A stretch of DNA of 49,578 nucleotides, the filler included, from Jimgerdemannia flammicorona (lineage: Eukaryota), in assembly GCA_003990765.1 (NCBI GenBank). It is 2 parts of 2 records of this genome, joined end to end, with 100 filler letters (N's around TTAATTAATTAA, not from the genome) between each part and the next. Parts side by side here need not be neighbours in the genome. Positions count along the whole stretch, not along the records: positions 1 to 24,739 come from RBNJ01000932.1; 1 more part is not named here. The stretch is one strand, 5' to 3'. The notes below the pieces were generated by a model. It had not been told where the DNA came from. It searched no databases and saw only the letters and a program-made list of their open reading frames with translations. Below, one piece after another: positions 1 to 24,839 of this stretch. The position numbers and the translations under genes were made by a program. Each line of letters starts with the position of its first letter. Position 1 is the stretch's first letter.

Positions 1-437
1 ACCAGACAATTGACTTTTGCTTTGGTTTGTATTCAACTTTCGGACTGAGGTTTTATTCACTCTCGCCACTGGGGTAATTTATACAAGTTGGTTGCTATCT
101 GGTTACTATGTGGCTAATTATACATTTGCTATCTTTGGCAATGTTTGGGTGTGTCCTCTGGGTACAGGTGTGTCCACAGGACATGAGTGTGTCCGCAGGA
201 CATGAGTGTGTCCGCAGGACATGAGTGTGTCCGCAGGACATGAGTGTGTCCGCCGGACATGAGTGTGTCCACAGGACACAGATAAACAATCCTGATCTGG
301 TGTCTTGGCTAATTATAAGTATGGCGGGCATGAGTAACTATGATACACTGGAAGTCACATCATGCTGAGTAAGTATGCTAATTGTTCGTGTCATCTGGCT
401 AAGTTATAATTCGGGTAGTATGTTCTGGTCCGTTACA
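1..437 (-). mobile_element. Partial LTR (subfamily C) related to the LTR-A/B family; runs off the window start
   Basis: The minus strand begins TGTAACGG at 437 (LTR-A begins TGTGACGG). The reverse complement of 1-100 reads AACTTGTATAAATTACCCCAGT..GAGTGAATAAAACCTCAGTCCGAAA..CAAAGCAAA, matching the TATA/AATAAA core of LTR-A. The flank reads ATAC in element orientation. Confidence 0.8.
168..280. repeat. 19-bp tandem repeat (ACATGAGTGTGTCCGCAGG) x5 plus partials, inside the U3 of LTR-C
   Basis: Units at 181-199, 200-218, 219-237, 238-256 and 257-275, head to tail with no spacers. Confidence 0.95.
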
Positions 438-1280
438 GTATATATACTACCCACAAACTGATAAATAAACTGAATGAGCAAATCAGACTCTCAAGTAGAT
501 ACTAAGAAACTATATTTCTTACAAATAAGATAACTGAGAACAATATCTTATTTTCATAGAGTTTATCTATAATAACTTAGTATAAGACTCAACAGACTTC
601 ACATCTTTCAAGTTACTATATGGTCAAGATGTATAAACTTTATCCAGCCTACTTACTTAAGTTAAGAAAGAATTCTTTAAAGTTTCTACCACCTAAGATC
701 TCATTGATAATATGACTATAATGATTTAAGTTACTAAAGATAACTTGCTCAAGGCCCAGATATATCAAGACCCAGATATGATAAGTCAAATATACCAATA
801 CTAGAAGATAGGAGATTGAATTCAAGATTGGCAATTAAGTACTCTTATCTACTATAAACCTCAATTTGATATTCTAAGTCAACCACTCTTCCAAGAAACT
901 CTAAGCAAGATATATTAGTTCTTATGAAATACTTGAATAAATATCTTCTATAATATATAAGTTAATACTACTATAGAACATCTATATATATTCTGTCTTC
1001 TATATCTCTCTATTTAAACTATACTATAATAGTCTACACAAGTACCTGAACTAGACTCCTCAGTCATTAGCACCTCTTTTGATTAATAGTTATATTGAGT
1101 ATAAAGTTGAGAAGATTCTTAACAAATATATATATTATAATCATACTGAGTATCTTGTTAAATAAGTAGGCTATCCTGAGTATGACAGTACTTAAGAATC
1201 TATTGAAAATCTCAAGAATACCCAACAAGCTCTCTATGAATACAAATATTGAGAACAATATTCTCTTTCAAGTAAAAGAG
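438..1280 (+). pseudogene. Heavily decayed 3' end of a chromoviral Ty3/Gypsy pol (integrase C-terminus, GPY/F, chromodomain)
   Basis: Hand translation gives PQTD..TE.ANQTL (~450), ST.FT.FKLLYG (~590), SKKL.ARYI..YEILE (~890) and chromodomain-like EYKVEKIL..EYLVK*VGYPEYDST*E..ENL (~1097-1215). A purine tract followed by TGT lies at ~1273-1284. Confidence 0.75.
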
Positions 1281-1589
1281 AATGTAATAATCCTTTATAT
1301 TCTATTTTTTTTTGCTAAATTATTATTTTTTTCTTTATCATATTACTTAGTAGAATATTCCAGAATAGCTTAGAATAGTATGAAATTACTTAGTCATTTG
1401 CTAAGAATCTGTTTCCTAAATAGTTCTGTTAATATTCTATCAATTATTAATCAATACTTAATAACTCTCTGTAATATTCTACTAAGTTTTGCCCAGTATG
1501 ACTCATTGCTCAGCATCCAGCTTAGTAATATTCTATCTGTTTCTTCTTCTTTCTATTTCTCTTATATAAATACTCTCTCAAAATATCTC

Positions 1590-2820
1590 AATAAAGCTCA
1601 GTCTAGTTAGTTATTATATAATCACTCAAATCTCCTAAAGGTAATTGAACTTCTCAAGTTCTATTTCTTAAATTTAGTTATATATTTCTATTTGGACATT
1701 TGCTAATATATAGTCTAAGTCTTAGATCTCATTTAACTTAACTATATTGAAGCACTTTTATACTTCAATAAGTGTAATTATTCTCTACAATATATATATT
1801 TATCAGTTCTAGCTCAAGAAAAATCTAATCAATAGTACTATATAATAGCTTATATAAGCTGAGCTACTAACCAATTATAGTAGTACTAAACTGGAATATC
1901 TTATAGTAATATGAGTAGTTATTCTATTTAAACACTATCTTATTAGAAAAAGATTCACTTTAATAACTGACCATATTACTCTAAAATGGCTATTTACCTA
2001 TATGAAACTTATTAAAATTCTTATCTGCTAAATTCTTATTATAAGATTACAAAATTATCATTATCTATAAGGTAAGAAAAGCTCACAACAATATTGATAT
2101 ACTTTCTTGCTAACTCTAATAAACTAGAAGAAGAATATACTAAGAAACTATACTCTAAAGAAAGCTTCTATAACTATCAAAATATAAGAAGACCTTATCT
2201 GAAAGAATATCAGAAAGTCTATCAAGAATAGGCAAATATAGAAGAAAAACTATAAATAATATATCAATATTGGCTCAACCTCAGAACATAAGTCAGAGAT
2301 ATACTCAAGAAATATAATATCTACCAGAAGTACTAAGAAAAGAAGAACTACTAAGTACTACTATAATCAATTATACTACTAGACAATATCTTTCAGAGAT
2401 AGAGAGTAGATGTTATTAGACTCCTATTAGTTATACTAAGAAGGAATAAATATATTCTAATATTTGTAGAATATCTAACTAAATGATCCAAAGCTTTTCC
2501 AATAAAAGTTGCTGATACCTTAACTATTATTAGTCTTCTCTATGATCTCATACTTAGATATAGACCCCCAGAAGAATATATTTCTAATTGAGGCACAGAA
2601 TTCATTAACAATATAATCACAAGTTATATCTGAATTCACATCTCAATAAACTATATTATATTACTCTCAAATCAATAGTATGATAGAATGAATGAACTAG
2701 ATTATTAAGAAAGAACTTGTCCAAGTCAATCCTATTAACTAAGATCTCTACTTATCTGAGATTCTATGGGAAATTCAGAATACTGAATATTATCAACTAT
2801 ATTGAAGTCTTGTTTTCTGA
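1590..2820 (+). pseudogene. Heavily decayed Ty3/Gypsy RNase H-integrase relic (a different element)
   Basis: VLAQE..IAY, NYSSTKLE and FKHYL..KRFTLITDH (~1805-1975), then NKYILIFVEYLTK*.KA (~2445) and GTEFIN (~2592). Confidence 0.75.
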
Positions 2821-2934
2821 GAAAGAGAAGAGTCACTAGAATGGAGTAATTTAGATACTGAAGAAGAAGGTGGTATAGATATAGATACTGAAGATACTTA
2901 TAGATATTATAATGATAACTAAATTATAGTCTAT

Positions 2935-5145
2935 AAAGGACATAACTACTGAATAGTAATTACAAAGTTTGCCATCTGGTCTATATATAATAATACTACT
3001 ATAAAATGTGTTCATAATTAGTTACCAAATAAAAATTTTATCTAAACAATTTTATAATTACAAATATTATCTTTTTCCTACTACAGATAGTCTGTGAAGT
3101 ATCCATGACATATATCTATAATATAGAACTGCTTTCACTTTATAGAAGAAGTCTTTTTTAGTCTCTTTGGAAGTCCTTTTAATAATCAGAAAATATACAA
3201 TTACTGGGAATATATTTTGTAAGTATTTGCACTGAATATATTTAGAGAGATTACTAATAAAAATATATAGCATATATATTTTAGTATATCTAAGCAGATT
3301 ATAATATATTTGGTCAATCTCAGGTAATATCAGGATTACTATTATACCAAGTGAGAGTTTTTTCTATAGTTTAAAAAAAGAATTATAGTTTGCAAACAGT
3401 GAGTATACTGACTGATCACTTGTAAACTTAAAATTAATTATTATTTTACCTATATTTGCTATCAAAAATTACTCTAATGTATCTCAGAGTACCATCTGCA
3501 GTATAGTATTTCTCTGCTTTAAATTTCATATTGTCCTTGAATAAAGTATTTTACATTAGCTTATACAGAATAGTAAGTAGATCTTAATAGAATAGTATAT
3601 ATTTACTAATTTAAGTTTTAGATAATGTGACGGTACAGCCAAATTTGGAAGAAGGAAATAGGGAATAGACACTTGATCGCACCCATTCCCAAAGTAGTAT
3701 AGCCTCATAGTTAGCAGTCCTCGATTTCGACATTGTCTAATTTCTTAGACATTATCCAAATCGAATACCCCGATTTAGCATAGCATTTAGACATTGTCTA
3801 AATGTTTTGACAAAGTCCAAATGACTCATTTATTACTTAGCCACCCTCTCATAGCTAGCAAACTTGTATAAATAACCCAGTATCTTCGAGTGAATAAACC
3901 TCAGATCGAAATAGTTCAAAGCAAAGAGATAGCAAAGAAACTAGTAAGCCTGCGGGCAGATATACTTCGAACTCACCCACCCTCCCCTGCAACTTCAAGA
4001 AGACTCTGTGAGAGTCAGAACAGTCAAGTTTTCAAGATACAGAAATCCAACGTACTTTCAAGAGTAAGTGTCCGCTACGTTACAATAAATAAGTAATATT
4101 AAAAACTTTATAATTGAAGGACTAATTTAAAAAAGAGAATTACTGAATGTTTATTGATTTAACAGATACATTAACTGTTTAATTATATATCACTCTATTT
4201 TTAGTTACTATATCTAAAATTTTTATTATCTCTCTTGAGTTTATAAACTAGAGGGGTCTGTTTGCTATTAAAATTCTTTTATCTATAAATATATTAAGAA
4301 GTTCATCTGCAACCTTTTGAGATATATTTTCACTTCAAAATAATAGATTTGTGAACTAAATTTCTCTATCATTCTTCTAAGAATATAAAGAATAATTTAT
4401 ATCAGTTATAGATATTTATCTGAGTTTAGAAATAAATTTGTTATACTGTATATACTTCTTTACTATTGATAATCTAACTATCAGTTGGTTTATAGATAAT
4501 ATAATTCTTATTGAACTCCAATATAGTAGATAGACTTCTCTGATCTTAAATTGAATTATTATTCTCTCTAAATAATTATCTTTTCTCTTAAATTAAATTG
4601 TCATTTTCACTGAATAATGAGCTTTTCTATTCTTAAATTGAAGATAATTACTACTGATATTATCTTGAATTATATATATATTCTTAGTATAATTATCTGA
4701 AATCTTTTAAGTTTATTTATATAGATTGCTCAAACTTAAAATATATGTGAAATTCAAGGTTAACTTATGAACTATAGATGAATTCATAAATAATAATAGT
4801 ATAATATTAAAGTTACTAAAATCTTAATAATCTGAAAATTCAAGGATAGACTTATCATTCTGATATTGTGTAAGTATATCATATATATATCTTATAGATA
4901 TATTAAGTCAATTCTGAGGCAGATTTGTACTTTAGATTGCAATATAAGCAAGAAAGCTTTATATTAATATTAGATTTAAAGTAGAGAAGGATTTGAAGGA
5001 TAATATGAATTTTAACAGTAAGTTTATAATCATGAAATATATTGATCTAAAATGAAATTCTTTATCTGATTGATTTTACACTTTTGCCCTTACTTAATAT
5101 ACTTACTTAGTATATATTTACTTGATATACTTGCTTAATATATAC
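2935..5145. repeat. Unclassified AT-rich dispersed repeat 'X', copy 1 (interrupted by the solo LTR at 3626-4084)
   Basis: Colinear with 27810-28058 plus 36790-38340; differences are mostly transitions. Family not identified. Confidence 0.8.
3626..4084 (+). mobile_element. Solo LTR, subfamily A (459 bp)
   Basis: TGTGACGG...TACGTTACA termini, near-identical to 5146-5621, with a 4-bp TSD ATAA (3622-3625 / 4085-4088). The empty-site paralog is at ~37215-37235. Confidence 0.95.
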
Positions 5146-5621
5146 TGTGACGGTATAGTCAGATTTGGAAGAAGGAAATAGAGAATAGATACTTGATCGC
5201 ACCCATTCCCAAAGTAGTATAGTATTATAGTTAGCAGTTCTCGATTTCGACATTGTCTAAATTCTTAGACATTGTCTAAATTTTGGACATTATCCAAATT
5301 GAATACCCCGATTTAGTATAGCATTTAGACATTGTCCAAATGTTTCGACAAAGTCCAAATGACTCATTTATTACTTAGCCACCCTCTCATAGCTAGCAAA
5401 CTTGTATAAATAACCCAGTATCTTCGAGTGAATAAACCTCAGATCGAAATAGTTCAAAGCAAAGAGATAGCAAAGGAACTAGTAAGTCTGCGGGCAGATA
5501 CACTTCGAACTCACCCACCCTCCCCTGCAACTTCAAGAGACTCTGCGAGAGTCAGAACAGTCAAGTTTTCAAGATACAGAAATCTGACATACTTTCAAGA
5601 GTAAGCATCCACTACGTTACA
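5146..5621 (+). repeat. 5' LTR of element A
   Basis: TG...CA termini, U3 tandem GACATTGTCTAAAT-like repeats, TGACTCA, TATAAATA and AATAAA. Confidence 0.95.
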
Positions 5622-5624
5622 ACT

Positions 5625-5646
5625 TGGTGTCCATTGGCTGGTAATT
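5625..5646 (+). promoter_or_regulatory. Primer-binding site
   Basis: TGGTGTCCATTGGCTGGTAATT lies 3 nt after the LTR end and starts with TGG (complement of tRNA CCA). Element B has the same position and similar sequence at ~13619. Confidence 0.75.
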
Positions 5647-5735
5647 CAAGGCAAATCCCTCAATTTCAAGCTGAACAACAAATAACTACCACTATCCAAA
5701 CAACCATACAAACCAAGTCCCAATACCCAGACAAG

Positions 5736-8700
5736 ATGGATATGAGACTGCCAGTATTCCATGGATATACCTCAGATGAATCAATCATCACCTTTATTGA
5801 TGATTTCGAGCAGTATGCTGCCGTAAGGACTCTGACAGCAGCACAGCAAGTAGCCCTCATGCCCTTCAGCCTACAAGGCCCTGCCAGAGCAGCATTCACA
5901 GCCACAACCCATGTAGGAAATGATGCCGATGCTGTACTGACAGCACAGAAGACCTGGCTCCGAAATACATATTACACAGATGAGATCAAGCAAGCTCTGA
6001 AGGATCAGCTCAACACAACGTGCCAAGGAATGAGTGAGGATCCAAACACATTCTATACCAGAATTCGATATCAGATAATCCTTGCAGATTATGCTGCTGC
6101 TACTCAAGATCAAGTAGCTGAAGCAACCTTCATGAAAGGAGTCCATCCAGAAATAGCCATGGCCATCTGCTCATCACCAGTGATTCTGGATCTGCCACAA
6201 AGGGTCACCTATGCTCAGCGATACTGGATAGCCAGACACCCACAAGACCATACAATGGAGAGAGTTACAGGAGTCAGAATCGAGGCACCCAAGGCAACCA
6301 GTGTGATCCCCACTACAATGATCAATCAAAACACACCTTAGCCAAAAGCTACCGAGCAGCAAAAGAACAGCGACCCTATGGAGGAACTTGCCAAAAGGTT
6401 TGCTGAAATGACTGCCCACCTAGGAGATATGGTAAAGGAAATCCGAGGAAGAGATTGCTGCCCTGTTCAGAAGTTTGCTACCACCTCAGATAAGAAGAAA
6501 GGTACCTGCTACAGCTGCGGAGAAGAAGGCCACTACTCCTATGAATGTATGAGTGAAACCAAATGCAAGGCTCAACCAAGCAATGCCACATGAAACAAGG
6601 AGCAGGCCAATACAATCACCTTTGAAGAAATCGGAGAATCTGATGAAGAAGAATGAGAGACCTATCCTACTCAGACCACCAAGAAGGATGTTCACAAAGA
6701 ACCCTACAAGAGACCACCAGGAAGACCCAAGAAGAACCCAGTGGAAAAGCAGATGGAAACTGCTACAGAAAGTAAAACCGAAGAGATAGACCAAGATATT
6801 GAGCTGGAGCAAGCAGTTCAAGATATCATCCAAGGGACTACTCTAGCCAGCAAAGGAGAAAAAGAAAAGAAGCTTCGCAAGACCAAGACCTTCAAGTATG
6901 ATATCTTCAAGGATCTCAGTCAACAAAAGGTCAATACAACCTTTGGTCAGCTTGCAGAAATCCCAACATTCAGACAGCAAATGAGGTTTGGACTTGCCGA
7001 AACAACTAAGGAACAAAGATGGAAGATAACCGAGGCCAATAATGTTCAAGAGGACTCAGGAGAAGAAAGTGAGGATAATCGCAAAACCTCTGCTTATGCA
7101 ACATGCCAAATTGAGGATCGAGTCTTTGAAGCCATCATTGACACAGGAGCAGGAGGATGTCTCCTCAGTAAGAAGGCAGCAGACCGCCTAGGTTGGGATG
7201 TGGAAGAAGCAACTAAGCTAGTATTCATCACAGCTGATGGCATAAGAGCCACATCTCTGGGAAAGATCTGAGATGTTCCCATCAAGATCGGAGGAGCAAC
7301 AATCCTAGTAGATGTAATCGTAACCAATGCCACCAACTATGACATCCTCATTGGCAATCAATGGCTTCACAAAGCCAAGGCAGTAATCGATCTCAATGCT
7401 CAGAAGATGCAGATCACCTACTGGGGACAGAAGATACGAATTCCCATCAACATCAACAAAGGAGTCCTGCTCGATATGGAGGAAAAAGAGAGCAAGCAAG
7501 AGGAAGCTTATATGGTGACTACCCCTAAGAAGAAGAAAGTTGGATAAATGAGTGAAGAAGAATGGTGCAAGAAGATCGCAGAAGGTTATGCCCCACAAGG
7601 AGTCTGTCCTCATGGAATCAAGATGTACTGTATGGAGCATGTCAATGATTGCTACCAGTGCACCATCGGAACCAGGAAGATCTACCAGGAAAGAAGCCAG
7701 AAAGCTCTCGAAAAACAGACCATGGAAGAAGAGAAGGAGGAAGATGATGAACCACCAGCCCTCCTGGAGGACAGTGATGATGAAGAAGAAATTAAGGTCA
7801 AGATTTGAAAGATCTACCCTAATGCAGTCTTGCCAGAATACAAGTCAGAAAACACAGCCAGAATGGACATCACTATAGTAGAAGAAACTGTACTTGAACC
7901 CCAGACAACCACCCTACTCGCAACTGGACTAGAGATGACCATTCCAAAGGATCATGTCAGGATTCTCAAGACAAGAAGCAGCCTGGCTAGAAGTGAAATC
8001 ACAATTGAAGGAGGAGTCATTGATTCAGACTATACTGGAGAAATTCTACTCATTGCTAGGAACCACAACCCTACAATTCCATTCCCAGTCAAGAAGAAGG
8101 ACCGATTGGCACAGATGTTGATCTTCCCAATCATACAGCCAAGGATCATAGAAGTCAAGAATCTGGAGGAAACAAAAAGAGGAAAGAAAGGATTCGGATC
8201 CACAGGAAGAGGAGTATTCACCAGCACCAAGATCACTGAACTCGAGCATAAGAAGGAGGAAAACATGAGCAAGCACAGTTATACCATTGGAGACGAATTC
8301 CCACTCAAGAAGGAACTCAAGAAAATACTCCACAAATTCAAGGATGTTCTTGCCATGGATTTCAAGGATATCAAGGGAAAGACCCCACACTACTATCATG
8401 AGGTAGATACTGGAGACACCGAATCAATTTATCAGAAAGCAAGACCTGTCCCGCCAGCCTACTAAGAATGGCTCAGAGAAGAAATCAAGCAGATGGAAGA
8501 AGCCAGTATCATCAAAGAAGCCAGCAGCCCCTGGTCTTCACCAGTTGTACTAGCCCTGAAAAAAGAAAGCAAACCTGGAGAATTTGCCCCAAGGCTCTGT
8601 GATGACTACAGAAAGCTCAATGCAGTCACCAAGAAGGATCGCCAACTACTGCTGCTCATCAGTGACATCCTTATAACACTGGGAGACGAAGCACAGTACT

Positions 8701-9713
8701 ACAGCACCTTGGACTTATACTCAGGATTCCACCAAATCGGACTCACAGAAGTGGCAAGTGAAAAGTCAGCCTTCATCACCCCAGACAGAATCTACATCTA
8801 CCTACAAATGCCATTCAGAATGTGCAATGCACCAGCAAGCTTTCAGCGAATGATGAACAAAATCTTCCACTATGACATGGGAAGATAGATGATGGTCTAT
8901 GTTGATGATGTAATTATCTACAGCAAGACGGCCAAGGAACATCTGCAGCATATACAGCAGATAATGGAGAGACTAAGACAACATGGCCTTTATATCAAAC
9001 CCAAGAAGTGCAAGTTTGCAGAAATCGAGATCTTCTATCTTGGCCATATCATCAATTGAGATGGAACACACATAGACCCCCTCAAGATATAAGTGGTAGC
9101 AGCATACCCAAGGCCCACTACTGTCACAGAAGCCCAAGCCTTCATGGGACTTGCCTCCTACTATTGCAGATTCATTAGAGGATTCTCCAACATCGCAGAC
9201 CCAATCTACGAACTCAACAAGAAGGATACCAAGTTCCAGTGGACTGGCAGACAACAAAAAGCATATGATAAACTCAAGGTCAGACTAACTCAGGCACCCA
9301 TCCTTAGATGACCCAATTGGACTCAAAAATTTATCCTTCAGACGGATGCAAGTGCATAGGGACTAGGAGCAGTCCTAGCTCAAAAAAAAGACAAAAAAGA
9401 GTATGTCATTGCATATCTTAGTTGTGGAACCCAAGGGACTGAAAAAGAATATGAGTCCTATAAGTTGGAATGCCTTGCAGTCATCTGGGCTGTAGAAAAG
9501 TTCCACTACTATCTGGCCGGAAGACACTTCACCATCCAGATGGACCACTCAGCTCTCACCTGGCTACTGACAACTGGACAACCCAAGGGAATCTATGCCA
9601 GATGGATAATGAAGTTATAAGCCTATGATGTAACCATCATGCACCACCCTGGAAGAACAAATTCCAATGCAGATGCTCTCTCACGGACACCTCAAACTAC
9701 CTCCAACCAATAA
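5736..9713 (+). pseudogene. Gag-protease-dUTPase-RT-RNase H polyprotein, single frame with premature stops
   Basis: All ORF fragments (5634, 6378, 6741, 7548, 7830, 8493, 9093) share one frame. Motifs: zinc knuckle CYSCGEEGHYSYEC, protease IIDTGAG, RT SPWSSPVVL / DYRKLN / LDLYSGFHQI / YVDD, RNase H LQTDAS.GLGAVL / DHSALTW / NADALSR. Confidence 0.93.
7790..8210 (+). pseudogene. dut: dUTPase domain between protease and RT
   Basis: Trimeric dUTPase motifs TRSSLA, GGVIDSDYTGEI, DRLAQML and RGKKGFGSTG. Confidence 0.93.
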
Positions 9714-9720
9714 ATCAATC

Positions 9721-10914
9721 ATGAATAAGGAGCTCTACTATGGAATTATCACATACCTGGGACAGCGAAAGATGCCCCAACATCTGGAAGAATGGACACA
9801 AATGATTATCAACAGAACATGGAAACAATTCGAAACTGACAGAGAAACACTGAAGAAAGGAAAACTACTAGTTATACCAGAACACAAGAAGGAGCAAGCA
9901 ATGAAATCAGTACATGAACTTGGCCATCTAGGAGGAACAAATACATACGACAAGGCAAGGAGAACAATATGGTGGCCAGGGATAGAGGAAGATATCAGAC
10001 AATTCGTCAAGACCTGTGACAAATGCCAGAAACAGAAACAAGACCAACGAAATCAAGCCCCAGGATCAGCACACATAGAATCAGTACCATTCGCCCACAT
10101 TGCAATGGATGTAATCAGCCCCTTACCCTTGACTTTGACTGGCAACTGATACATCATTGTCATTGTAGACCTTTTTACAAAGTGGATAGAAGTGGGACCC
10201 CTTATGGAAGCCAATGCACAGTCAATCGCCGATTTCTTCTACAAGGAAATCATCTGCCAGTTCAAGACCCCAACACAAGTAACTACAGATAGAGGAACCG
10301 AATTCATGAACCAGTTCTTTGAAGTTCTCTACAAGAAGTACAAGATCCAGCACATTCAGATCACAGCCTATCATCCTCAAGGAAATGGACAAGTAGAAAG
10401 GACCAATAAGACCCTCAAGAATGTTATCACCAAGATCTGTGATAACTACAAGAACTGGGATCACTATCTGCCAATAGCATTATCTGCTCTCCGGGATATC
10501 CAATCACAAAGCACCCACTTTATCCCTTAAGAAATGCTGTTCGGAGAAGAATGTTCTCAAGGAACCCTATTATCCAATGCAGATGCTGTATGGAAACATA
10601 TGGACATTGAAATATGGAGACTACACCAAATCAGGAAGAAGGCTGAGGATTATATAACCAAGGCACAGACACTACAATGGAGGAATGTGGAAAAGACCCA
10701 CAAGCCCTTGGAGATTATCAAGATAGGAGACAAGGTCCTGATGTATCGGAACATGGTAGAAGCTTCATGGTCACGAAAACTGGAGCCTAAGTGGGAAGGA
10801 CCTTACCTTGTGCAAGATATAAAAGGGACCACCTTTTGGCTACGAAAACCCTCAGGCATAATAATCCCCACCACCATTCACCGAAACTGACTCAAGAAAT
10901 ATCATGACCAGTAA
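9721..10914 (+). pseudogene. Integrase encoded as a separate ORF, with premature stops
   Basis: Own ATG at 9721 in a different frame from RT-RH. HHCC (HELGH...CDKC), DDE (MDVISP, TDRGTEF, GQVERTN) and GPY/F (KLEPKWEGPY); no chromodomain. Confidence 0.9.
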
Positions 10915-11365
10915 CAAAAGTACTGCAATGGCACTCAAGATCACTAGTGCTGCCCAAAGAGCCATTGAAAGACAATAGCACACCACCAAGCCTCCAACCA
11001 TAGAGCCATACTATGAGAATATTCAGAGTATTGTGCAGACTCATCTCTCTCGGATCTTGCACTTCAGAGCCTATCAATATTGGGCAGAATTCCAAGAGTA
11101 CTTCAAGCTTGGACAGGTGCTCAATCAGGATCCAGCAAAGACCAAGGAGGACTGGATTGCTGAGTGTCAACTCTCCCACTTACAGATCACTATTGCCAAA
11201 AGGATCCATAAGTTATTCCGAGAAGATGAAGCAGCGATAGACCACCTGAGAGGAGTAACCCCTACTGACTTCGAGAAAGTGAGAAGACATCATTGGGAAA
11301 CAGTCATGCAGCAAATCACACAGTACAAGACCATACAGACCATTGAAGCCTAGGAGTTTGAATAG
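10904..11365 (+). pseudogene. Third ORF (~153 aa, unknown function) between integrase and PPT
   Basis: ATG overlaps the integrase stop (ATGACCAGTAA) and there are two internal TAG codons. The homolog in element B (17837-18297) is conserved at the protein level with many synonymous changes. Confidence 0.8.
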
Positions 11366-11391
11366 ATGTCTCAGGGATGAGACCATCCATT

Positions 11392-11402
11392 CAGGAGGAA
11401 GT
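11392..11402 (+). promoter_or_regulatory. Polypurine tract
   Basis: AGGAGGAAGT immediately before the 3' LTR; the equivalent in element B is AGAAGGAAGT. Confidence 0.75.
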
Positions 11403-11878
11403 TGTGATGGTACAGTAAGATTTGGAAGAAGGAAATAGGGAATAGACACTTAATCGCACCCATTCCCAAAGTAGTATAGCATTATAGTTAGCAGTCCTCG
11501 ATTTCGACATTGTCTAAATTCTTAGACATTGTCTAAATTTTGGACATTATCCAAATCGAATACCCCAATTTAGTATAGCATTTAGACATTGTCCAAATGT
11601 TTCGACAAAGTCCAAATGACTCATTTATTACTTAGCCACTCTCTCATAGCTAGCAAACTTGTATAAATAACCCAGTATCTTCAAGTGAATAAACCTCAGA
11701 TTGAAATAGTTCAAAGCAAAGAGATAGTAAAAGAACTAGTAAGCCTGCGGGCAGATACACTTCGAACTCACCCACTCTCCTCTGCCACTTCAAGAGACTC
11801 CGCAAGAGTCAGAACAGTCAAGTTTTCAAGATACAGAAATCCGATGTACTTTCAAGAGTAAGCATCTGCTATATTAAA
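11403..11878 (+). repeat. 3' LTR of element A
   Basis: Direct repeat of 5146-5621; the terminal CA is mutated to AA. Confidence 0.93.
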
Positions 11879-13121: not shown

Positions 13122-13615
13122 TGTGACAGTTGATCTGAATTAGTAATATGTATGTATAAATCAGAGAAATTAGATATTTGATCATAGTATCTGAACTCAA
13201 TTCCCAATATAGTATAGCCTAATAAATAGCAATCATTTCACAGGTGTTAAAGTTTTCACAAATGTTTAAATTTCACAAATGTCAAGAATTCACAGATGTT
13301 AAATCTTGATAATTGTCAAGATTTTACAGATGTTAAGAATTTATACTTGTGAAAAGTGACTCATAACATAATCATAACTTAGCCATCTTATAGCTAGCAA
13401 ACTTATATAAATAACTCAGTATCTTGAGTAAATAAACCTCAGATCGAAATAGTTTAAGAGCAAAGAGAAAGTAAAGGAACTAGTAAGCCTATGGGCAGAT
13501 ATACTTTGAACTCACTCTTCTGTACTCTAAGGACTCTGCAAGAGTTAGAACAAGTCAAGTTTTCAAGATATAGAAATCTGCCATACTTTTGAGATTAGGT
13601 ATCTACTACATTATA
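13122..13615 (+). repeat. 5' LTR of element B
   Basis: Direct repeat of 18339-18831. U3 carries TTCACAAATGTCAAG-like repeats; the TATA/R/U5 part is shared with LTR-A. Confidence 0.93.
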
Positions 13616-16600
13616 ACTTGGTGCCCATTGGATAGTAATTCAAGATAAATCCCTCACTTTCAAGCTGAATAATGAACAACTGCTACCACTTGAACAACTA
13701 TACAAATTGAACCAAGACATCTGGACAAGATAGATATGAGACTACCAGTATTCTATAGATATACTGCAGATGAATCAATCATTATCTTCATTAATGATTT
13801 TGAGCAGTATACTGCTGTAAGAACCCTGACAGCAATACAGCAAGTAGTCCTTCTGTTCTTCAGTCTCTGAGGACCAGCAAGAGCAGTATTTGCAGTTGCA
13901 ACCTATATAGAAAATGATGACAATACAGTACTAGAAGTATAAAAGGCCTGGCTTTGAACTATCTACTATATAGATGAGATCAAGTAAGCCCTAAAGGATC
14001 AAATACAACTTGTCAAGAAATGAGTGAGAATCCAAATACATTCTACACCAGGGTCTGATATCAGATAATCCTTGCAGATTATGCTGATACCATCTGAGAT
14101 CAATTAGCCAAGATAACCTTTATGAAAGGAGTTTACCCAGAGATAGCCCTAACCATCTGCTTATTACCAATAGTCCTGGATCTACTACAAAAGGTTACCT
14201 ATACCTAGTAATACTGGATAGCCAGATATCCACAAGATCATATAATGGAAAGAGTCACTAGAGTTAGAATTGAAACACTCAAGGCAACCAGTGTAATCCC
14301 TACTAGAGTAATCAATCAAAACACACCTCAGCCAAGAGCTACTGAACAGTAGAGGAATAGCAACCCTATAGAGGAGCTTACTAAGAAGTTTGCTGAAATG
14401 ACAGCCTACCTAGGAGATGTGATAAAGGAAATTAAAGGAAGAGAGTGGCACTCAGTTCAGAAATTTGTCACCACCTCAGATAAGAAGAGAGATATCTGCT
14501 ATACTTGTGAAGAAGAAGGTTACTACTTATATAAATATATGAGTGAAACTAAGTACAAGGTCCAGCCAAGCAATATTACTCAAAATAAGAAATAGATTGA
14601 TACTATTACATTTGAAGAGATTGGAGAATCAGATAAAGAAGAATAAGAAGCTTACTCTGCCAAGATTATCAAAAAAGATATCTGCAAACAACCCTACAAG
14701 AGATCCTCAGGGAGACCCAAGAAGAACTCTATAGAAAAGCAGATGAAAACTACTACAGAAAGTCAAGGTAAAGAAACAGATCAAGATATGGAGCTTGAAT
14801 AGGCTGTTCAAGATATCATCTGAGGAACTACTCCAGCTAGTAAAGGAGAAAAGAAGAAGAAGCTTTACAAAACTAAGATTTTTAAGTATAATATTTTCAA
14901 GGACCTCAGTCAATAAAAGATCAATACAACCTTTGGCCAACTGGCAGAAATACCTACATTCAGATAGCAAATGAGATACAGACTTGCTGAGACAACTAAG
15001 GAGCAAGGTTGGAAGATAACTAAGGCTAACAATGTTCAAAAAGACTTAAGGTAAGAAAGTGAAAATAATCACAAGACCTCTGCCTATGCAATCTATCAGA
15101 TTGAAGATAGAATCTTCAAAGCCATTATTGATACAGGAGCAGGAGGATGTCTTCTCAGTAAGCAAGCAGTAGACTATCTAGTGGGAGGTTGAAGAAGCAA
15201 CTAAGCTGGTGTTTGTCACAGCAGATGGTATAAGAGCTATCTCTCTAAAAAAGATCTGAGATATTCCTATCAAGTTTGGGAGAGCAATTATTCCAGTAGA
15301 TGTGATTATGACTAATGCCACCAACTATGACATCCTTATTAGCAACCAGTGGCCTGATGAAGCCAAGGCAATAATTGATCTGAATACCCAGAAGATACAG
15401 ATTATCTACTGAGGCCAGAAGATGTAAATTCCCATTAATATCAACAAAGGAGTGCTGCCTGAGATGAAGAAAGAAGAAAGTAAGTAAAAAGAAGCCTATA
15501 TAGTAACTACTCAGAAAAAGAAAAAGAAAGTCAGATAGATCAGTGAAGAAGACTGGTACAAGAAGATCATAGAAAGATATACACTACTAGGAGCCTGTCT
15601 CTATAGAATCAAGATGTACTATAGCAAGCACATCAATGACTGCTACCAATATAGTATTGGTATCAGAAAGATCTACTAGGAAAGAAGACAGAAGGCTCTC
15701 AAAAAACAGACAAGAGAAGAGGAGGAGAAGGAAGAGGATGACAAACCACCAGTCCTCCTAGAGGACAGTGATGATGAAGAAGAAATAATAGTCAAGATTT
15801 GGAGGATCCACTCTGATGCAGTTCTATCAAAATACAAGTCAGAGAATACAGCCAGAATAGATATTACTATAGTAGAAGAAACCATACTGGAGCTCCAGAT
15901 AATCACCCTACTTGCAACTGGTCTGGAGATGACTATTCCAAAGGACCATATTGGAATCCTCAAGACAAGAAGCAGCCTGACTAGAAGTGAAATTACAATT
16001 GAAGGAGGAGTCATCAATTCTGATTACATATATTGGAGAAATACTACTTATTGCTAGGAACTACAATCCTATAATTCCATTTCCAATTAAGAAGAAGGAC
16101 TGACTGATACAGATATTAATCTTTCCAGTTCTTCAGCCAAGGATCATGGAAGTCAAGAAGTTGGAGAAAATAGAAAGAGAAAGGAAAGGATTCAGATCTA
16201 TAGAAAGAGGAGTATTCACTAGTACCAAGATTACTGAACTAGATCACAAGAAGGAGGAAACTATAAACAAGTATAGCTATACTATTGGAAATGAATTCCC
16301 ACTCAAGAAGGAACTCAAGAAGATACTTTATGAACTCAAAGATGTCCTAGCCATGAATTTCAAGAATATCAAAGGAAAGACCCTATACTACTATCATGAC
16401 ATAGATACAGGAGACACTGGATCAATCTATCAAAAGTAAGACCAATACTATTAGCCTACTGTAAATAGCTCAGAGAAGAAATCAAGAGATGGAAGAAACT
16501 GGTATCATTAAAGAAGCCAGCAGTCCCTGGGCTTCACCAGTTGTACTATCTCCAAAAAAAGAAAGCAAGCTAGGAGAATTTGCCCCAAGACTCTATACTG

Positions 16601-18338
16601 ATTATAGGAAGCTCAACTTGGTTACCAAGAAGGACCTCTAACCATTAAATCAATCATAAATAAGGAGCTCTACTACAGAATTATCACTTACCTGAGACAG
16701 CAAAAGATGCTCCAATATCTGGAAGAATGGATATAAACAATTATCAACAGAACTTGGAAACAATTCGAAATCAATAGAGAGATACTGAAGAAAGGAAAGC
16801 TACTAGTTACATCTGAACACAAGAAGGAGCAAGCAATAAAATCAATATATGAACTTGGCTATCTAGGAGGAATAAACATATATAATAAAGCAAGAAGAAC
16901 AATGTAGTAACCAGAGATAGAGGAAGATATCAGACAATTTATCAAAATCTGCAACAAATATCAGAAATAAAAACAAGACCAATGAAACCAAATCCCAGAA
17001 TCAGCACACATAGAATCAGTATTCTTTGCTCATATAGCAATAGATGTAATTGGTCTGCTACCTCTGATATTAACTGGTAACCAATACATCATAGTCATTA
17101 TAGACCTTTTCATAAAATAGATAGAGGTAGGACCCCTCAAGAAAGCTAATATACAGTCAATTGCCAATTTCTTCTATAAAGAAATTATCTGCTAATTCAA
17201 GACCTCAGCACAAGTAACCACAGATAAAGGAACAGAATTCATGAACTAGTTCTTGAAGGTTCTCTATAAGAAATATAAGATCTAGCATATTTGGACCACA
17301 GCCTATTATCTATAAGAAAATGGATAAGCAGAAAGAATCAATAAGACTCTCAAGAATATTGTTACCAAGATCTACAATAACTATGAAAACTGGAATCACT
17401 ATCTGCCAATAGTATTATCTGCTCTTTAGGATATCTAATTACAAAGTACTCACTTTACTCTCTAAGAAATGCTATTTGGAGAAGAAAGTTCTCAAGAAAT
17501 CCTATTGTCCAATGAAGATACTATATAGAAACATATGGATGCAGAGATATGAAGACTCTATCAAGTCAGAAAGAAGGCTGAAGATTACATAACCAAGGTA
17601 CAGACAATATAACAGAATAATGTAGAAAAATTCACAAGCTCTTAGGGATTATCATAATAGGAGATAAAGTTCTGGTATATCAGAATATGGTAGAAGCTTT
17701 ATAGTTACAAAAACTAAAGCCTAAATAGGAGGACCTTACCTTGTACAAGATATAAAAGTAATCTCCTTTTAGTTATAAAAACTCTCAGGCAGAATTATCC
17801 TCACTACTATTTACTGAAACCTACCCAAGAAGTATTATGGCTAGTTAATGAAGTATGGCAACAGCTCTCAAGATCACTAGTGCTGCATAATGAGTCATAG
17901 AAAGACAATAATGTACTACTGAGCCACTTACAATAGAAGAATCTTTGACAGTATCCAAAGTATAGTACAGATATATTTGTCATAAATTTCATACTTCAAG
18001 GCCTACCAGAATCAGACAGAGCTTCAAGAATACTTCAAGTTAGGATAGCTACTGAACTTATAGCCAGAGATGGAAAAAGAAGACTGGATTAAAGAGTGTC
18101 AGCTCTCTCATACTCAGATTACAATTGCCAAATAAGTTAATAAGCTATCTAAAGATAATGAGCCAGCCATAGCCCATCTTCAAGAAGTAGCTCTAGGAGA
18201 CTTTGGACATATCAAGAGATACTATTGGAAGAACATAATGATACAAATTATATAGTACAAAGAGATACAAATTGTAGATACTTGGGAGTTCAAGTGAATA
18301 GGATATTTCAGGGATAAATTACCTATTCAGAAGGAAGT

Positions 18339-18831
18339 TGTGATGGTTGATCTGAAATGGTAACATAAATTAGGGAAATTAGACATTTGATTGTAGTACC
18401 TGAATCCAATTCTTAATATAGTATAGTCTTATAAATAGCAGTTATTTCATAGGTGTTAAAGTTTTCACAAATGTCAAAATTTTACAAATATCAAGAATTT
18501 ACAGATATTAAATCTTGACAATCATTGAGATTTTACAGATGTCAAGGATTTATACTTGTAAAAAGTAACTCATAACAATAACATAGTTATAACTTAGCCA
18601 CCTTATAGCTAGCAAACTTATATAAATAACTCAGTATCTTAGAGTGAATAAACCTCAGATTGAAATAGTTCAAGAGCAAAGAGAAAGCAAAGAAACTAGT
18701 AAGCCTATAGATAGATATACTTCAAACTCACTCCCCTACATCCTGAGGACTCTGTGAGAGTTAGAATAAGTCAAGTTTTCAAGATACAGAAATCTGCCAT
18801 ACTTCTAAGGTTAGGTGTCCACTACATTACA
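18339..18831 (+). repeat. 3' LTR of element B
   Basis: TGTGATGG...ACATTACA, preceded by a PPT. Confidence 0.93.
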
Positions 18832-20112
18832 ATACATACATTTCTACAGATATCTCAGAATACTTTTCAACATGCAAAAATCTCTAGATATAGGATTTTA
18901 ATAAATTTTTGGGTTACATCTATTTTTAGTTTGGCATGCATTATGCATTGCATTTCTTCTAGTTTGCATTACATATTCTTGCAGTTTTCATCTTTTTTGG
19001 GTTACATAATTATCTCGTTGAACTCGATATGTCAGCGCCATTTTATCAGTTTTACGTCATTCATCAGTAACGCGAGAAATACGCGACCTACGCAACTTCA
19101 ATAAAATTGCACAATAACGAATTGCCAATCCCATCTGACGGAATTACCAAATTGTCAACTGGAAGATATCAACGGGAACAACAGAGTCGTTGACTTAAAA
19201 TAAGTCGATGGGATCAATCACTGTATCAAGTATTGCCGTCGGCACAGTCAAACCAACGAATCGTACATCCGCCGTCCGATTGCGCAAACCAAACAGGCAC
19301 CGAATCGATTTTCGGGCCAAGAACGTTGCCTTAATCGCATACCGAGTAACCGAGTAACCGAATAACCTTCATTTTTCCATCCACGGATATTGAACTATAC
19401 AAAACGTATGCCACAATAGAAACAAAACTCGACAGTCGCAAAGCGTCTAATCAGCGTTAGCATACTCGGATTCTCAAAGCCAGCGGGACGTGGATATGTG
19501 GCGATGAGATTAAGGTTAAGTTTCACACCGAAATTACAGATGCCTTATTTATTATTATTATTATTATACAATACCAAATAGTTACTAGATATAAAAAAAA
19601 TCATTGAATAAACGCAGAACGTTGACCGACGACTAAGCACAGAATGACAGTACAGGACGGTAACGAATGGCGACTAAACGGAGGATTGTAATGAACGACA
19701 GTTTGAGTGCAGAATAGGATAGCGCTCTGCGTGGGTAAACCTAGAAGACCGACCACTGCGAGGTACTCACGAAGCGACTTCAGTGTTGTCAGCAGAGGGA
19801 TTTTGGTCATTGCAGGACGTCATTGCAGTAGAGTATAATTATGTCGTGGGCGTGCGAATGAAGGAAAGAGGTGGCACGACCTGGCCACAAGACTGTGCCT
19901 TAATTTGACTAACAGCGCGCTCCTTTTTTTTTTTTTTTTTTTTTATAGATATCAAACTTTAGTAATCATTGAAACGAGACTTTATTTACAATTTTTATTC
20001 ATTTATTTTTTTCGTAGAGATATAAAGTAATCGTCGACTTCAAAACTTGGCAGCTCACGTCAAAGAGAATGGGTGCTCAATAAAAAAAAACCCCCCTCTT
20101 ACCGCCTTCTCG

Positions 20113-20819
20113 TCACTGACACCCCCACCCTATTCGCTCCATTTGAACCCAGTCCAAACACAGTCCGCTCTTGGTGTAGCTACAATCGACGTCCCGTATG
20201 TGGCACTTGACGTTCTTCCCAGCATCGGCATTGGTAATAATTATGCGCTGCGACAACCTGTACTCGGTCCACTCGGACTCCTTCAACGTGTGCCAGAATC
20301 CTTCGCCCGGTTGTTCCTCCAAAGACATATTCCCGTCAATGACCTCGTAACCAAAGCGTATTCTGTACAAACTCCGGCTCGAATTTCCCACGACCTTGAG
20401 CCGCCAGACAACTTCATACTGGCCGGGGCGCACGTTGCGAAACTCGCCATCGGCGGCCATCCACCAGACCCACCTAGGCTGACGATCTGACCGAACTCCG
20501 ACTCGAGATCAGGAATACGTGACCAGTACCGATTGTCGAGCCAGGTGACGTCGCTTGCGAGGTAGATCTTTGGGGAGGAGAGGCGGATATAGGCTCTCAG
20601 GTAGGATTCGCCGCTGAGTTCGGGGTGGGCGCTGGGAAAGTCCACGAGGAGTTTCAACTGCCACAGCCATTCACTTCGTGTGAGGTCGGCAATGCGACGG
20701 TACGCCAGGGCAGCCTGCAGGACGTCGAGTGGGCTGACAAGGACGAGAATATTGACAAGGATTTCGTTTGGAATGTTGTCAAAGCCACAGTTGGCAGACG
20801 TTTGAGTAAGTGGTGGCAT
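20113..20819 (-). pseudogene. F-box protein with a C-terminal PP2 (phloem protein 2)-like lectin domain; 1-bp frameshift near 20475 (pseudogene or sequence error)
   Basis: F-box FDNIPNEILVNILVLVSPLDVLQAALAYRR...WLW. PP2-like motifs TWLDNRYW, SEFGQIVSL.WVWW, GQYEVVWRLK, WTEY and TKSGLCLD are split over two ORFs; adding one base at CTA GG TGG joins them. CpG content is intact. Confidence 0.75.
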
Positions 20820-21179
20820 TTAGACGGGGGGAGGCCGTAACAGCGTGCTCCTTACCACGTGTGAAGGTCACCTTACAAAGTACTGTTCTTCTCTACGTGG
20901 CCAGGCCTCATGTGCAGCCTTTGTTACACAAACCCTAAAAAAATAACGGTTTATCAAACACGTTCATCATATCGGAAGAAAATGCACTTCGCCTAATTTG
21001 GATATACACGTGGGATATCTGTTTTCGTGATGACCTTTGGCTCTATTTCGATATCCACCGGAGTTCAGTTGATTTAGTGCAATCAAAGTAGGCGATATCG
21101 CACAGATTTAATGCGTGTCACAAGAGATCTCCCCCGTAATCGAGCACATGAACGGTTTCCGCCTCAATCGACGGTTCGG

Positions 21180-21266
21180 AATCCGCTCGTACGACCAAGG
21201 ATCCCAGATTGCTCGTATGACCAAGGATCCAAATGTATTCTCAATCCGCTCGTACGACCAAGGATC
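21180..21266. repeat. Three direct repeats (ATCC)GCTCGTAYGACCAAGGATC in the divergent intergenic region
   Basis: Copies at 21181-21203, 21211-21229 and 21244-21266. Confidence 0.9.
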
Positions 21267-21383
21267 TCGGGTCCAAATTCAAATGAATTCGTCGGCGCGG
21301 AACATAATTACAAACCCCTGTCAATTCCTTAATCGTCCCTGGAACCCTTCTCTATCCTCTCCAAAGATATCCTCTCGCGCTCC

Positions 21384-23112
21384 ATGGGCCAGTCTCTGTC
21401 TAGATTCTACGCGGTCAAACGCAAGGAAGGCCGCCGTAAGAATCTTGCACCCCAGGAGATACCTGGTGACAAGCCTCCTACCAAAGACTCGCACGGGGAC
21501 CCAATTCCTGAAGACTCCAAGGTCATCGATGGTAGCCTTTTCAAGAAGTCTGGCAGCGCCGTTTACCCGCTACCGAACGACAAGTCTGAGTATGGCCGCT
21601 TGAACACCCAGCACTATCTTATCCGGTGAGCGATTCGATTTGAATTCTTAATGGCAAAATCGCATCCCATTGCGACATAGTCTTTTGTATTGAAAATTCA
21701 GCCGTCAAAAGTACGGTTGGAATGTGGTGGAACTATGGAGGCGTTAAAGACCACAAATCTGACCGCCTTTCTGATCCGCAAATTAGCTATATTTTTCAGA
21801 GGTAGGAATTGATGTTTAAATTTTATGTAAACTATGCGTTGTGGTCACCATTGTTTATTCATACCATTTAAATCACCAATCTTTCTGTTGTAGTAATTAC
21901 AAAGCACCCGTCACTGAAGACCTGGAACGTGGAATAAAAGTCCTTGACGCCGGGTGAGTCACTCTTCCACCCCTATCATTTATTCCAACAACAACCATCT
22001 CCGAAGGTGCTAATAGGAAGCTGTCTGCATCCTCCAGCTGCGGCACCGGCGTCTGGACAATCGTAAGTGCCCTGTCCAATGTCGACCTCTCGTAGATCAA
22101 TTGTACTGCCCGCCTGATCCCCTTTTCTCTCCCCTGCCTCGAATTCAACCACTACACAGGAGATGGCTAATGAGTTTCCGAACTCGACCTTCATCGGTAC
22201 CGACATTACCAACGTCTTTGCCGTGTCGATCGAAAACGCGCCGTCCAACTGTACCTTCCTGGAGGCCGATACGACCAAGCGCTTGCCATTCGACGACAAT
22301 ACGTTGGACTATGTGTTCCAGCGTTTCCAAATCGGGTGTTTCGCAAAAGCAACGTGGCCTATTGTCATCAAAGAGCTTATGAGAGTGTGCAAGCCCGGGG
22401 GTTTTGTTGAGCTGGGTAAGGTTCTTTTTTTTTTTTTTTTTTTTAAGTTTTTATTCACATTCTTTTTCTCGCATGATTCTCATTCTCCATGTTTTACGCG
22501 CAGTCGAAAGCATATACCCGAATGACTGCGGCCCGGCGTTGTCAAAGCATGGTGAATGGTGTGCGTATTCTCCATTCTCATTCTCTGTCTCATTGTTATG
22601 TTATCCTCATCACACATCACATCCTCTTACCCCCCCCCCAAACTTCCCGCAGTTGAAACTCTCCTCTCCCTCCGTGGCGTCGACGCTAAGGTTTTCAAGA
22701 CCCCGGAGCTCGTCATCAACGCGGGCCTGCTTGATCTCCAAAGCTCGTACTCGCCCTGGCGGCTTAACTGGGGCCCCGATAAGAAGCTAGGCGAGCTGAA
22801 TGCACAGGTTTGTGCTCTGGCCCTGTTGGCTACCTCCCTTCAATCCCCCCTCGTGCTATTAAAGACTCATTCCTCCCCTCCTTTCCATAGAATTACATGA
22901 GGGGAATTCGCAACCTCCGCGCCCATATCTGCACTTCCCTCGGCATTGGCGATGACGAGTACGAAGAGGTTATGCGCGGATGCGAGGCAGAACTGCTCGT
23001 ACCGGAGGTGGAATATAAAGCGTCTCTTACCATCTTCGACTACTACGGCCGAAAACCCTTTCCCGTCACAGACGACGCCCAGCTCAAGATACACAAACCT
23101 TTGGAAAAGTAG
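21384..23112 (+). CDS. Class I SAM-dependent methyltransferase (LaeA-like / Methyltransf_23-25 type), 8 exons, 343 aa
   Basis: Exons 21384-21625, 21787-21801, 21894-21953, 22038-22062, 22160-22415, 22504-22560, 22653-22807 and 22891-23112. All introns are GT-AG and the exons total 1032 nt in frame. Motifs: YPLPND..E..RL..QH, VLDAGCGTGVW, GTDI, LPFDDNTLDYV, ELMRVCKPGGFVEL. Confidence 0.92.
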
Positions 23113-24739: not shown

Positions 24740-24839
24740 NNNNNNNNNNNNNNNNNNNNNNNNNNNNNNNNNNNNNNNNNNNNTTAATTAATTAANNNNN
24801 NNNNNNNNNNNNNNNNNNNNNNNNNNNNNNNNNNNNNNN
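24740..24839. other. Artificial contig linker (44 N + TTAATTAATTAA + 44 N)
   Basis: Exactly 100 bp and symmetric; the core gives stop codons in all six frames. Confidence 0.97.

Follow-up and report, generated by a model that had tools for sequence, protein, structure and literature searches.

We examined a stretch of 49,578 nucleotides from the genome of Jimgerdemannia flammicorona (GenBank assembly GCA_003990765.1), which joins parts of two records end to end (positions 1 to 24,739 derive from RBNJ01000932.1) and is here called the window. It contains 2 copies of a family of Ty3/Gypsy-type retrotransposons with long terminal repeats (LTRs), which we refer to as copy A and copy B. In copy A, the open reading frame (ORF) that ends with RNase H (RH) is followed by the integrase (IN) in an ORF of its own and then by a small third ORF, here called ORF3. 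The features of the 2 copies are given below.

5146-11878, plus strand: copy A, the whole element, a Ty3/Gypsy-type LTR retrotransposon and a dead copy
5146..5621, plus strand: 5' LTR of copy A with TG...CA ends; a sequence like a primer-binding site (PBS), ACTTGGTGTCCATTGG (TGGTG...), comes next
5736..9713, plus strand: ORF1 of copy A, encoding gag (CCHC)-protease (PR)-dUTPase-reverse transcriptase (RT)-RH in a single frame without an integrase domain, from Pfam and translation
9711..9723, plus strand: Pol/IN junction of copy A, consisting of TAA, ATCAATC (9714-9720) and ATG (9721-9723), in the +1 frame and with A at -3
9721..10914, plus strand: stand-alone integrase ORF of copy A, 397 codons, with H2C2 zinc finger, DDE core and GPY module, from Pfam and translation
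10904..11365, plus strand: ORF3 of copy A, a member of a small-protein family, with an 11-nt overlap with IN, from translation and intact relatives
11393..11401, plus strand: polypurine tract (PPT) AGGAGGAAG, 1 nt upstream of the 3' LTR, read off the sequence
11403..11878, plus strand: 3' LTR of copy A, from the repeat search and end alignment
13122..18831, plus strand: copy B, of the same family, older and heavily decayed, from BLAST of A against B, with LTRs at 13122-13615 and 18339-18831
16646..16658, plus strand: junction of copy B, TAA-ATCAATC-ATA
17837..17839, plus strand: ATG of copy B that matches the ORF3 start position

Anatomy and decay of copies A and B

Pfam searches identified the domains zf-CCHC, RVP_2, dUTPase, RVT_1 and RT_RNaseH in ORF1 of copy A, which stopped at the TAA codon at 9711-9713, eight codons past the ADALSR motif of RNase H. 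An earlier note on this DNA had described gag through RNase H as one frame ending at this codon. The frame is indeed free of frameshifts, in that its one-frame translation could be aligned to residues 30-595 and 687-1320 of the Pol protein of an intact metagenomic relative (L001, described below), but it is interrupted by 13 internal stops (3 TAG, 6 TGA and 4 TAA). The integrase ATG was located 7 nt past the pol TAA, at 9721 and in a second frame (+1), and the ORF3 ATG at 10904-10906 in the third frame, +1 relative to IN, where it overlaps the IN stop codon TAA (10912-10914) inside ATGACCAGTAA; both positions were as the note had given them. The integrase frame contained 3 internal stops and ORF3 contained 2 internal TAG codons, at 10976 and 11351, the latter of which corresponds to a residue in relatives. 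Under the standard code, no ORF above 301 amino acids (aa) was found anywhere in the window. Copy A is a pseudogene, and the fact that both copies in the window are dead had been overlooked in the note.

The LTRs of copy A were 96% identical over a 300-nt reference stretch (5146-5445 and 11403-11702). The element displayed the Ty3/Gypsy traits of LTRs, a PBS-like site, a PPT and the order PR-RT-RNase H-IN, and its RT/RH sequence grouped with Ty3/Gypsy proteins. The usual trait of an integrase that forms the C-terminal part of Pol was absent, since a stop codon and a change of frame separate RH from IN; an integrase inside the Pol polyprotein is, however, a customary trait of the Metaviridae rather than a formal criterion. 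No match to a chromodomain was obtained in the integrases of the window, L001 or a further relative, L017, and the element does therefore not qualify as a chromovirus. It was also noted that a third, diverged LTR-like copy of the family was present at 3608-4092, with 64% to 85% identity to the LTR of copy A; most likely it represents a remnant or a solo LTR.

Copy B was 80.0% and 76.8% identical to copy A in two segments. As the earlier note had reported, it showed the same 7-nt spacer with the ATG changed to ATA (16646-16658) and, where ORF3 would start, an ATG (17837-17839). Copy B retained IN and ORF3, without RT/RH: the 1,060 bp of RT/RNase H sequence at 8639-9698 in copy A had no counterpart, and the joint was located at 16634, 12 nt before the TAA. 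With the RT/RNase H sequence lost, copy B confirms the local junction sequence but cannot show how the frames of pol and IN relate to each other. Copies A and B alone could not exclude an inherited indel.

To describe the decay, we compared positions 13743-18340 of copy B with positions 5739-11402 of copy A. In the first segment of the comparison, the changes in copy B included 198 C>T and 157 G>A substitutions, as against 55 and 71 in the reverse direction. The share of the sites in copy A that were changed in copy B was 56% for CpG, 39% for CpA, 27% for CpC and 16% for CpT. The observed to expected ratio of CpG ranged from 0.00 to 0.25 in the repeats versus 1.05 in a gene-like island of the window. 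The pattern in copy B looks like the outcome of repeat-targeted cytosine methylation and deamination, or of a process similar to repeat-induced point mutation.

Conservation of the split between Pol and integrase

A protein search with the RT/RNase H sequence gave 4,863 matches, the best 120 of which were examined. Within this set, the nearest proteins, with 45% to 52% identity, were metagenomic proteins with the layout gag-PR-(dUTPase)-RT-RH and no integrase domain, and in many of them Pol ended 10 to 31 residues past the ADALSR motif. An integrase search based on an alignment of three integrases gave 663 matches at E<=1e-3. All of the 120 matches listed were metagenomic, and 119 of these best 120 were examined. 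The first methionine of the copy A integrase corresponded to the first methionine in 100 of the 119 relatives and to a methionine behind a short extension in 4 more, which means that the start methionine was retained in 104 of the 119 related stand-alone integrases; the other 15 were truncated at the N-terminus. The consensus of the N-terminus was M-N/D-x-E/D-L-Y-Y-G-L. An intact metagenome integrase (P0132) could be aligned to the window integrase without gaps and with 74% identity. The HHCC and DDE residues were invariant in all of the 54 aligned integrases, and the related integrases look functional, as far as can be judged from their sequences.

The arrangement was also examined at the DNA level by a scan of metagenomes, which gave 80 loci, in 58 of which both RH and IN could be placed. 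RH and IN were in the same frame at 50 loci, 48 of them without a stop in between, and in different frames at 8 loci. Three of these 8 were intact split elements, here called L001, L002 and L017, and the other five (L013, L044, L050, L065 and L079) were distant. In L001, ORF1 (41-4735) encodes 1,564 aa with no stop and contains CCHC, PR, dUTPase, RT and RH but no IN; the integrase (4732-5988) starts with an ATG that overlaps the pol TGA as ATGA, and ORF3 is located at 5960-6652. In L002, an uninterrupted pol ends with TGA, which is followed by 2 nt and the integrase ATG, and ORF3 overlaps IN by 125 nt. In L017, the pol TAG is followed by 110 nt and then by a complete integrase of 542 aa. The spacer in L017 (1195-1304) was A-rich and without G, and the possibility that it is an intron was rejected because it contains no GT. 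Scans of viral and of genome contig collections with the integrase alignment gave one distant, unrelated locus each.

It was further noted that the 5' end of the LTR, TGTGACGGTAT, was common to the window element (5146 and 11403) and L001 (6740-6760), the proteins of which are about 45% identical, and this fits a conserved end recognized by the integrase. L001 also contained four tandem 28-nt repeats at 6810-6949.

Parts of this element family were found in soil and root metagenomes. Contigs from 4 soil runs (Logan) spanned positions 9543-9785 with no gaps, and no indel was listed at 9600-9760. Two single soil contigs skipped 112 and 85 nt over the end of RNase H, with joints at 9607>9720 and 9626>9712, respectively; with either joint, pol and the integrase ATG would share a frame. 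With flanks of 26 and 30 nt, these skips may represent an alignment artefact or a fused variant, and they were too weak to be used.

A phylogeny was inferred from the RT/RH sequences with FastTree for 122 of 124 rows, after two rows with fewer than 300 aligned residues had been dropped; branch support is given as Shimodaira-Hasegawa-like (SH-like) values and no bootstraps were calculated. The placement of RT in a phylogeny, one of the checks proposed in the earlier note, put the window element in a clade of 12 rows (support 100) in which every Pol stopped early. The enclosing clade of 59 rows (SH-like support 94) contained no Pol protein fused to IN, but 21 with a short tail, 28 with a long tail devoid of IN and 10 that were unclassifiable. 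All of the 56 IN-fused rows in the tree fell outside the 59-row clade; IN-fused relatives in this analysis include P0063, P0079, P0081 and P0094.

Because the split is seen in intact relatives, the start methionine is conserved, the tree contains an unfused clade and the soil contigs cross the junction without gaps, we consider the separation of IN from Pol to be ancestral and to have been maintained across a large clade. The three-cistron layout with a stand-alone integrase is very probably both ancestral and functional, and the family in the window belongs to a large, mostly soil-borne three-cistron clade. The suggestion that the stand-alone integrase cistron is a conserved layout is supported by the three split elements, the 104 of 119 methionines and the unfused 59-row clade. 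A fusion of RH and IN in most copies, which would have spoken against it, was seen neither among the nearest relatives nor in the 59-row clade.

Two explanations would deprive the arrangement of its meaning. The frame break could be a private indel that arose by decay in a dead lineage, a view that draws on the many stops in both pseudogenes of the window and on the silence of copy B about the pol frame. However, the split is common to intact relatives, P0132 is an intact integrase with the same start, the soil contigs are free of indels over the junction and no fused integrase occurs in the whole clade, and we find this explanation extremely improbable. The earlier note had likewise held a private indel to be unlikely; that judgement stands on the relatives and the soil contigs, but not on copy B, which cannot show it after the loss of RT/RNase H. 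It could also be argued that stop codons are decoded as amino acids in the host and the frames are truly open, given the many in-frame TAA, TAG and TGA codons and the fact that 5 of the 12 stop positions of copy A that are covered by copy B are stops in copy B too. Against this, all three stop codons are used, translation with table 6 still leaves TGA stops, the intact relatives show assorted ordinary residues at the stop positions, the close metagenome relatives are open under the standard code, and the changes match the C>T decay pattern. An alternative genetic code, to which we assign practically no probability, was therefore rejected, and the stops were attributed to decay.

The 59-row clade also contained a sister group in which Pol runs 200 to 400 residues past ADALSR without an integrase domain. 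Proteins with such long tails include P0034, P0041, P0047, P0066, P0067, P0084, P0106 and P0107, and the members P0077, P0084, P0106 and P0107 carry the names Rhizophagus irregularis and R. clarus at NCBI. The sister group resembles the window element in that Pol is without IN domains and the RT/RH sequences share a clade, but differs from it by the long tail after ADALSR and by mostly being without dUTPase. Some of the tails contained a Cys-rich motif, C-L-T-C-G-N..S-G-S..W..K-H-Y-Y-S. The short Pol tails of one subclade (L002, P0044, P0059, P0068, P0070, P0074, P0098 and P0109) retained the peptide motif F-I/V-E-R-L-P-K..G-P-F, which could serve in restart as an RNA element or provide a docking site for a free integrase.

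Translation of the integrase

The integrase is, in all likelihood, translated from its own AUG, because the methionine is conserved, the frame offset is variable, no slippery heptamer is present and the integrase frame of L017 is closed upstream. The offset of IN to pol was +1 in the window and +2 (-1) in L001, L002 and L017, and from stop to start L001 had a distance of -4 nt, L002 of +2 nt, the window of +7 nt and L017 of +110 nt. All four integrase AUGs had an A at -3. Inspection of the tails of fused relatives showed that a homologous stretch (..D-P-x-L..I..Y-L..G..P) opens the N-terminal module of their integrases, and the boundary between ORF1 and IN would fall where a protease site is expected. 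Splicing that joins Pol to IN was excluded for the window and L001, where the stop follows ADALSR after only 24 to 33 nt and conservation of the integrase sequence sets in at the methionine.

As to how ribosomes reach this AUG, we favor termination-reinitiation and regard its chances as even: among diverged members of the window's clade, three have the start at -4, +2 or +7 nt from the stop, and an A at -3 is common to all four AUGs. Ribosomes that end ORF1 on the full-length RNA would reinitiate at the adjacent integrase AUG, the output of integrase would be below that of Gag-Pol, and the integrase would be supplied as a free protein and enter the particle or the pre-integration complex in trans. 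We infer reinitiation, an integrase that acts in trans and any role of ORF3 from the sequences. The explanation as a whole, comprising a three-cistron clade, an integrase with its own AUG and reinitiation, could equally well prove right or wrong.

Several observations weigh against this interpretation. Among the sequencing runs listed for the stretch, none was an RNA run. The start positions behind the conserved methionines stem from proteins predicted by gene callers, for which a start codon is obligatory, and the tail classes in the tree were likewise taken from predicted proteins, some of which are cut by contig ends, with 11 rows of class "unknown" left uncounted. The junctions that could be read as DNA number four (the window, L001, L002 and L017). 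None of these contained a UGGGA motif within 150 nt upstream, and the 100 nt upstream showed no extra folding compared with shuffled sequences (z-scores of -0.43, +0.48, +1.01 and -0.49). Reinitiation is normally inefficient after an ORF of 1,300 to 1,560 codons. Furthermore, the 110-nt A-rich spacer in L017 suits internal entry or a separate RNA more than a tight coupling. ORF3 starts 11, 29 or 125 nt before the integrase stop, and simple reinitiation cannot serve ORF3 in L002 because of the start 125 nt before that stop. The four sequences were too few for covariation in the search for reinitiation helpers, and a search of the window against Rfam gave no matches at the gathering score.

The earlier note had left the choice between reinitiation, frameshifting and subgenomic RNAs open; frameshifting is now disfavored, and the other two are both compatible with the data. 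The main rival to reinitiation is a spliced or internally initiated subgenomic RNA for IN, and perhaps for ORF3, as for env in retroviruses and insect errantiviruses, on which the conserved integrase AUG would be the first start codon. This possibility, which we rate as less probable than reinitiation, would accommodate the conserved AUG in a good context, the frame offset, which has no bearing on this route, the 110-nt spacer in L017 and the fact that neither a helper motif nor structure was found at the four junctions. The start of ORF3 up to 125 nt before the integrase stop also means that ORF3, at least, probably needs another route. A subgenomic RNA offers no account, other than compaction, of the near-zero spacing (-4, +2 and +7 nt) that three diverged members show. 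It is improbable that ribosomes enter the full-length RNA internally, close before the integrase AUG. In favor of such entry, the upstream regions are unstructured and the fraction of A reaches 0.53 over 150 nt in L017, but the AUG in L001, L002 and the window lies inside or at most 7 nt from the upstream coding frame, which leaves no dedicated leader, and no conserved element was seen beyond the coding motif. Still less probable is a Pol-IN fusion protein made by programmed ribosomal frameshifting. At three junctions the integrase frame is open before the ATG and overlaps pol (window, 80 nt; L001, 37 nt; L002, 121 nt), and the 2 soil contigs with skips would place pol in the frame of the integrase ATG, although their short flanks make them unreliable. 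However, the direction of the shift would vary among relatives (+1 versus +2), a canonical slippery heptamer X_XXY_YYZ was found at none of the four junctions, L017 has no overlap and its integrase frame is closed by stops in the stretch from the end of pol to the ATG, and the start methionine, which frameshifting does not require, is kept in most of the related integrases.

ORF3, known systems and the rest of the window

Relative to IN, ORF3 was offset by +1 in all three cases (the window, L001 and L002). A search with ORF3 gave 13 matches, the close intact relatives of the window protein being P0250 and P0252-P0259, and a profile search against 1.84 billion representatives gave 66 clusters at E<=1e-3, of which 19 also passed E<=1e-10; with few exceptions their length was 100 to 260 aa. 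As read from the alignment, the family consists of a helical domain of about 125 residues, a Pro-rich stretch and a G-E-L/M-W motif, and many members end with a K-R-x-R patch that resembles a nuclear-localisation signal. A model from a shallow alignment was poor, with a predicted local distance difference test score (pLDDT) of 44, and a second model was good, with a mean pLDDT of 82 and about 97 over residues 1-125, so that the helical domain was modelled with confidence. Pfam gave no match to ORF3, and none among 52 family members besides one spurious match. The best E-value was 0.033 against PDB sequences, 2.3 for the model against PDB folds (Foldseek) and 1.1 against BFVD. A wide fold search (VIA) gave a best Z of 4.5 with a root mean square deviation of 3.2 over 71 residues, and the protein atlas gave unrelated leads only. 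ORF3 is a conserved small-protein family whose predicted structure matches no known fold in the libraries searched, and a role in nuclear delivery would be speculation.

In canonical Ty3/Gypsy elements (Metaviridae, for example Ty3), Pol has the order PR-RT-RH-IN and the integrase is part of the Pol polyprotein. The window element shares with them the TG...CA LTRs, the PBS, the PPT, the order PR-RT-RH-IN, the H2C2 and rve domains and the GPY module. It differs from them in that Pol ends after RNase H, the integrase has its own cistron and AUG, there is no gag/pol frameshift, a dUTPase is located between PR and RT, a conserved ORF3 is added and there is no chromodomain. In DIRS elements, the integrating enzyme is encoded by an ORF apart from, and overlapping, that for RT/RH, but this enzyme is a tyrosine recombinase and the terminal repeats are different. 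A separate ORF for the integrating enzyme is common to both, whereas the window element has a DDE integrase and ordinary LTRs.

Stop-restart translation is used at AUGA in victoriviruses, at UAAUG in the hypovirus CHV1, for M1/BM2 in influenza B and in the non-LTR element SART1, and for VP1/VP2 in caliciviruses, with a termination upstream ribosomal binding site (TURBS). These systems resemble the window's clade in that stop and start overlap or are a few nucleotides apart (-4, +2 and +7) with a variable frame relation, and differ from it in that a UGGGA-type motif and upstream structure were not found at the four junctions.

In textbook retroelements, the integrase enters the particle within Gag-Pol, which sets its dose and guarantees its packaging. 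A diverse and apparently active clade, which includes at least 100 distinct integrase clusters with invariant catalytic residues, seems to break this link. This raises the questions of how a eukaryote translates a cistron that lies downstream of so long an ORF, by which route a free integrase would reach the cDNA, whether it could serve defective copies in trans (compare copy B, with IN and ORF3 but without RT/RH) and what role the conserved ORF3 protein has. Annotation pipelines in which RT, RH and IN are expected to share a frame will class such elements as broken. A more far-reaching proposal, which we consider doubtful, is a clade-wide uncoupling in which the integrase is made by stop-restart after an ORF of about 4.7 kb (which would be without precedent among LTR retroelements) and acts in trans, and an ORF3 with a new fold aids nuclear entry. 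If this joint reading were true, the tail of ORF3 that resembles a nuclear-localisation signal would help to bring the integrase or the cDNA complex to the nucleus.

The expression strategy had been called possibly undescribed in the earlier note, and keyword searches of the literature, which can miss such work, gave no published description of a stand-alone integrase cistron in an LTR retrotransposon. Likewise, no printed example of stop-restart translation in an LTR retrotransposon was found by keyword search, and the papers examined concern gag/pol or non-LTR elements. According to one study, the bdelloid rotifer elements Juno, Vesta and TelKA resemble the window element in that PR and RT are separated by a dUTPase and pol is followed by a third ORF, and the Vesta1b family is also without a gag-pol frameshift (PMC5408684). 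In that study, their pol is described as canonical PR-RT-RH-IN, and the third ORFs are of env-like, GDSL esterase or DEDDy exonuclease type, unlike the small helical ORF3 of the window (PMC5408684). According to two other papers, dUTPase was already known in fungal Gypsy elements (PMC2864245) and Tmt1 of Tuber is a chromovirus (PMC12581995).

The window is AT-rich, with 26% to 30% GC between elements, and consists mostly of decayed repeats. Four more two-copy repeat families with 71% to 87% identity were noted, at 23553-24654 and 48387-49493, 35042-36198 and 44586-45734, 3254-3492 and 36867-37105, and 4291-4827 and 37426-37970; Pfam gave no match for ORFs sampled in two of these four repeat regions. 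Two runs of 44 N were present, at 24740-24783 and 24796-24839. A GC-rich island (50%) at 20026-22900 showed a normal CpG content and host-like gene fragments, which are given below.

20286-20819, minus strand: F-box ORF, in the GC-rich island
20116-20508, minus strand: PP2 domain ORF, in the GC-rich island
22118-22522, plus strand: methyltransferase fragment, in the GC-rich island

In the protein atlas, a lead for the F-box/PP2 gene pointed to F-box clusters rich in rotifers. The frames of the F-box and PP2 ORFs overlap, and an intron or a frameshift may account for this.

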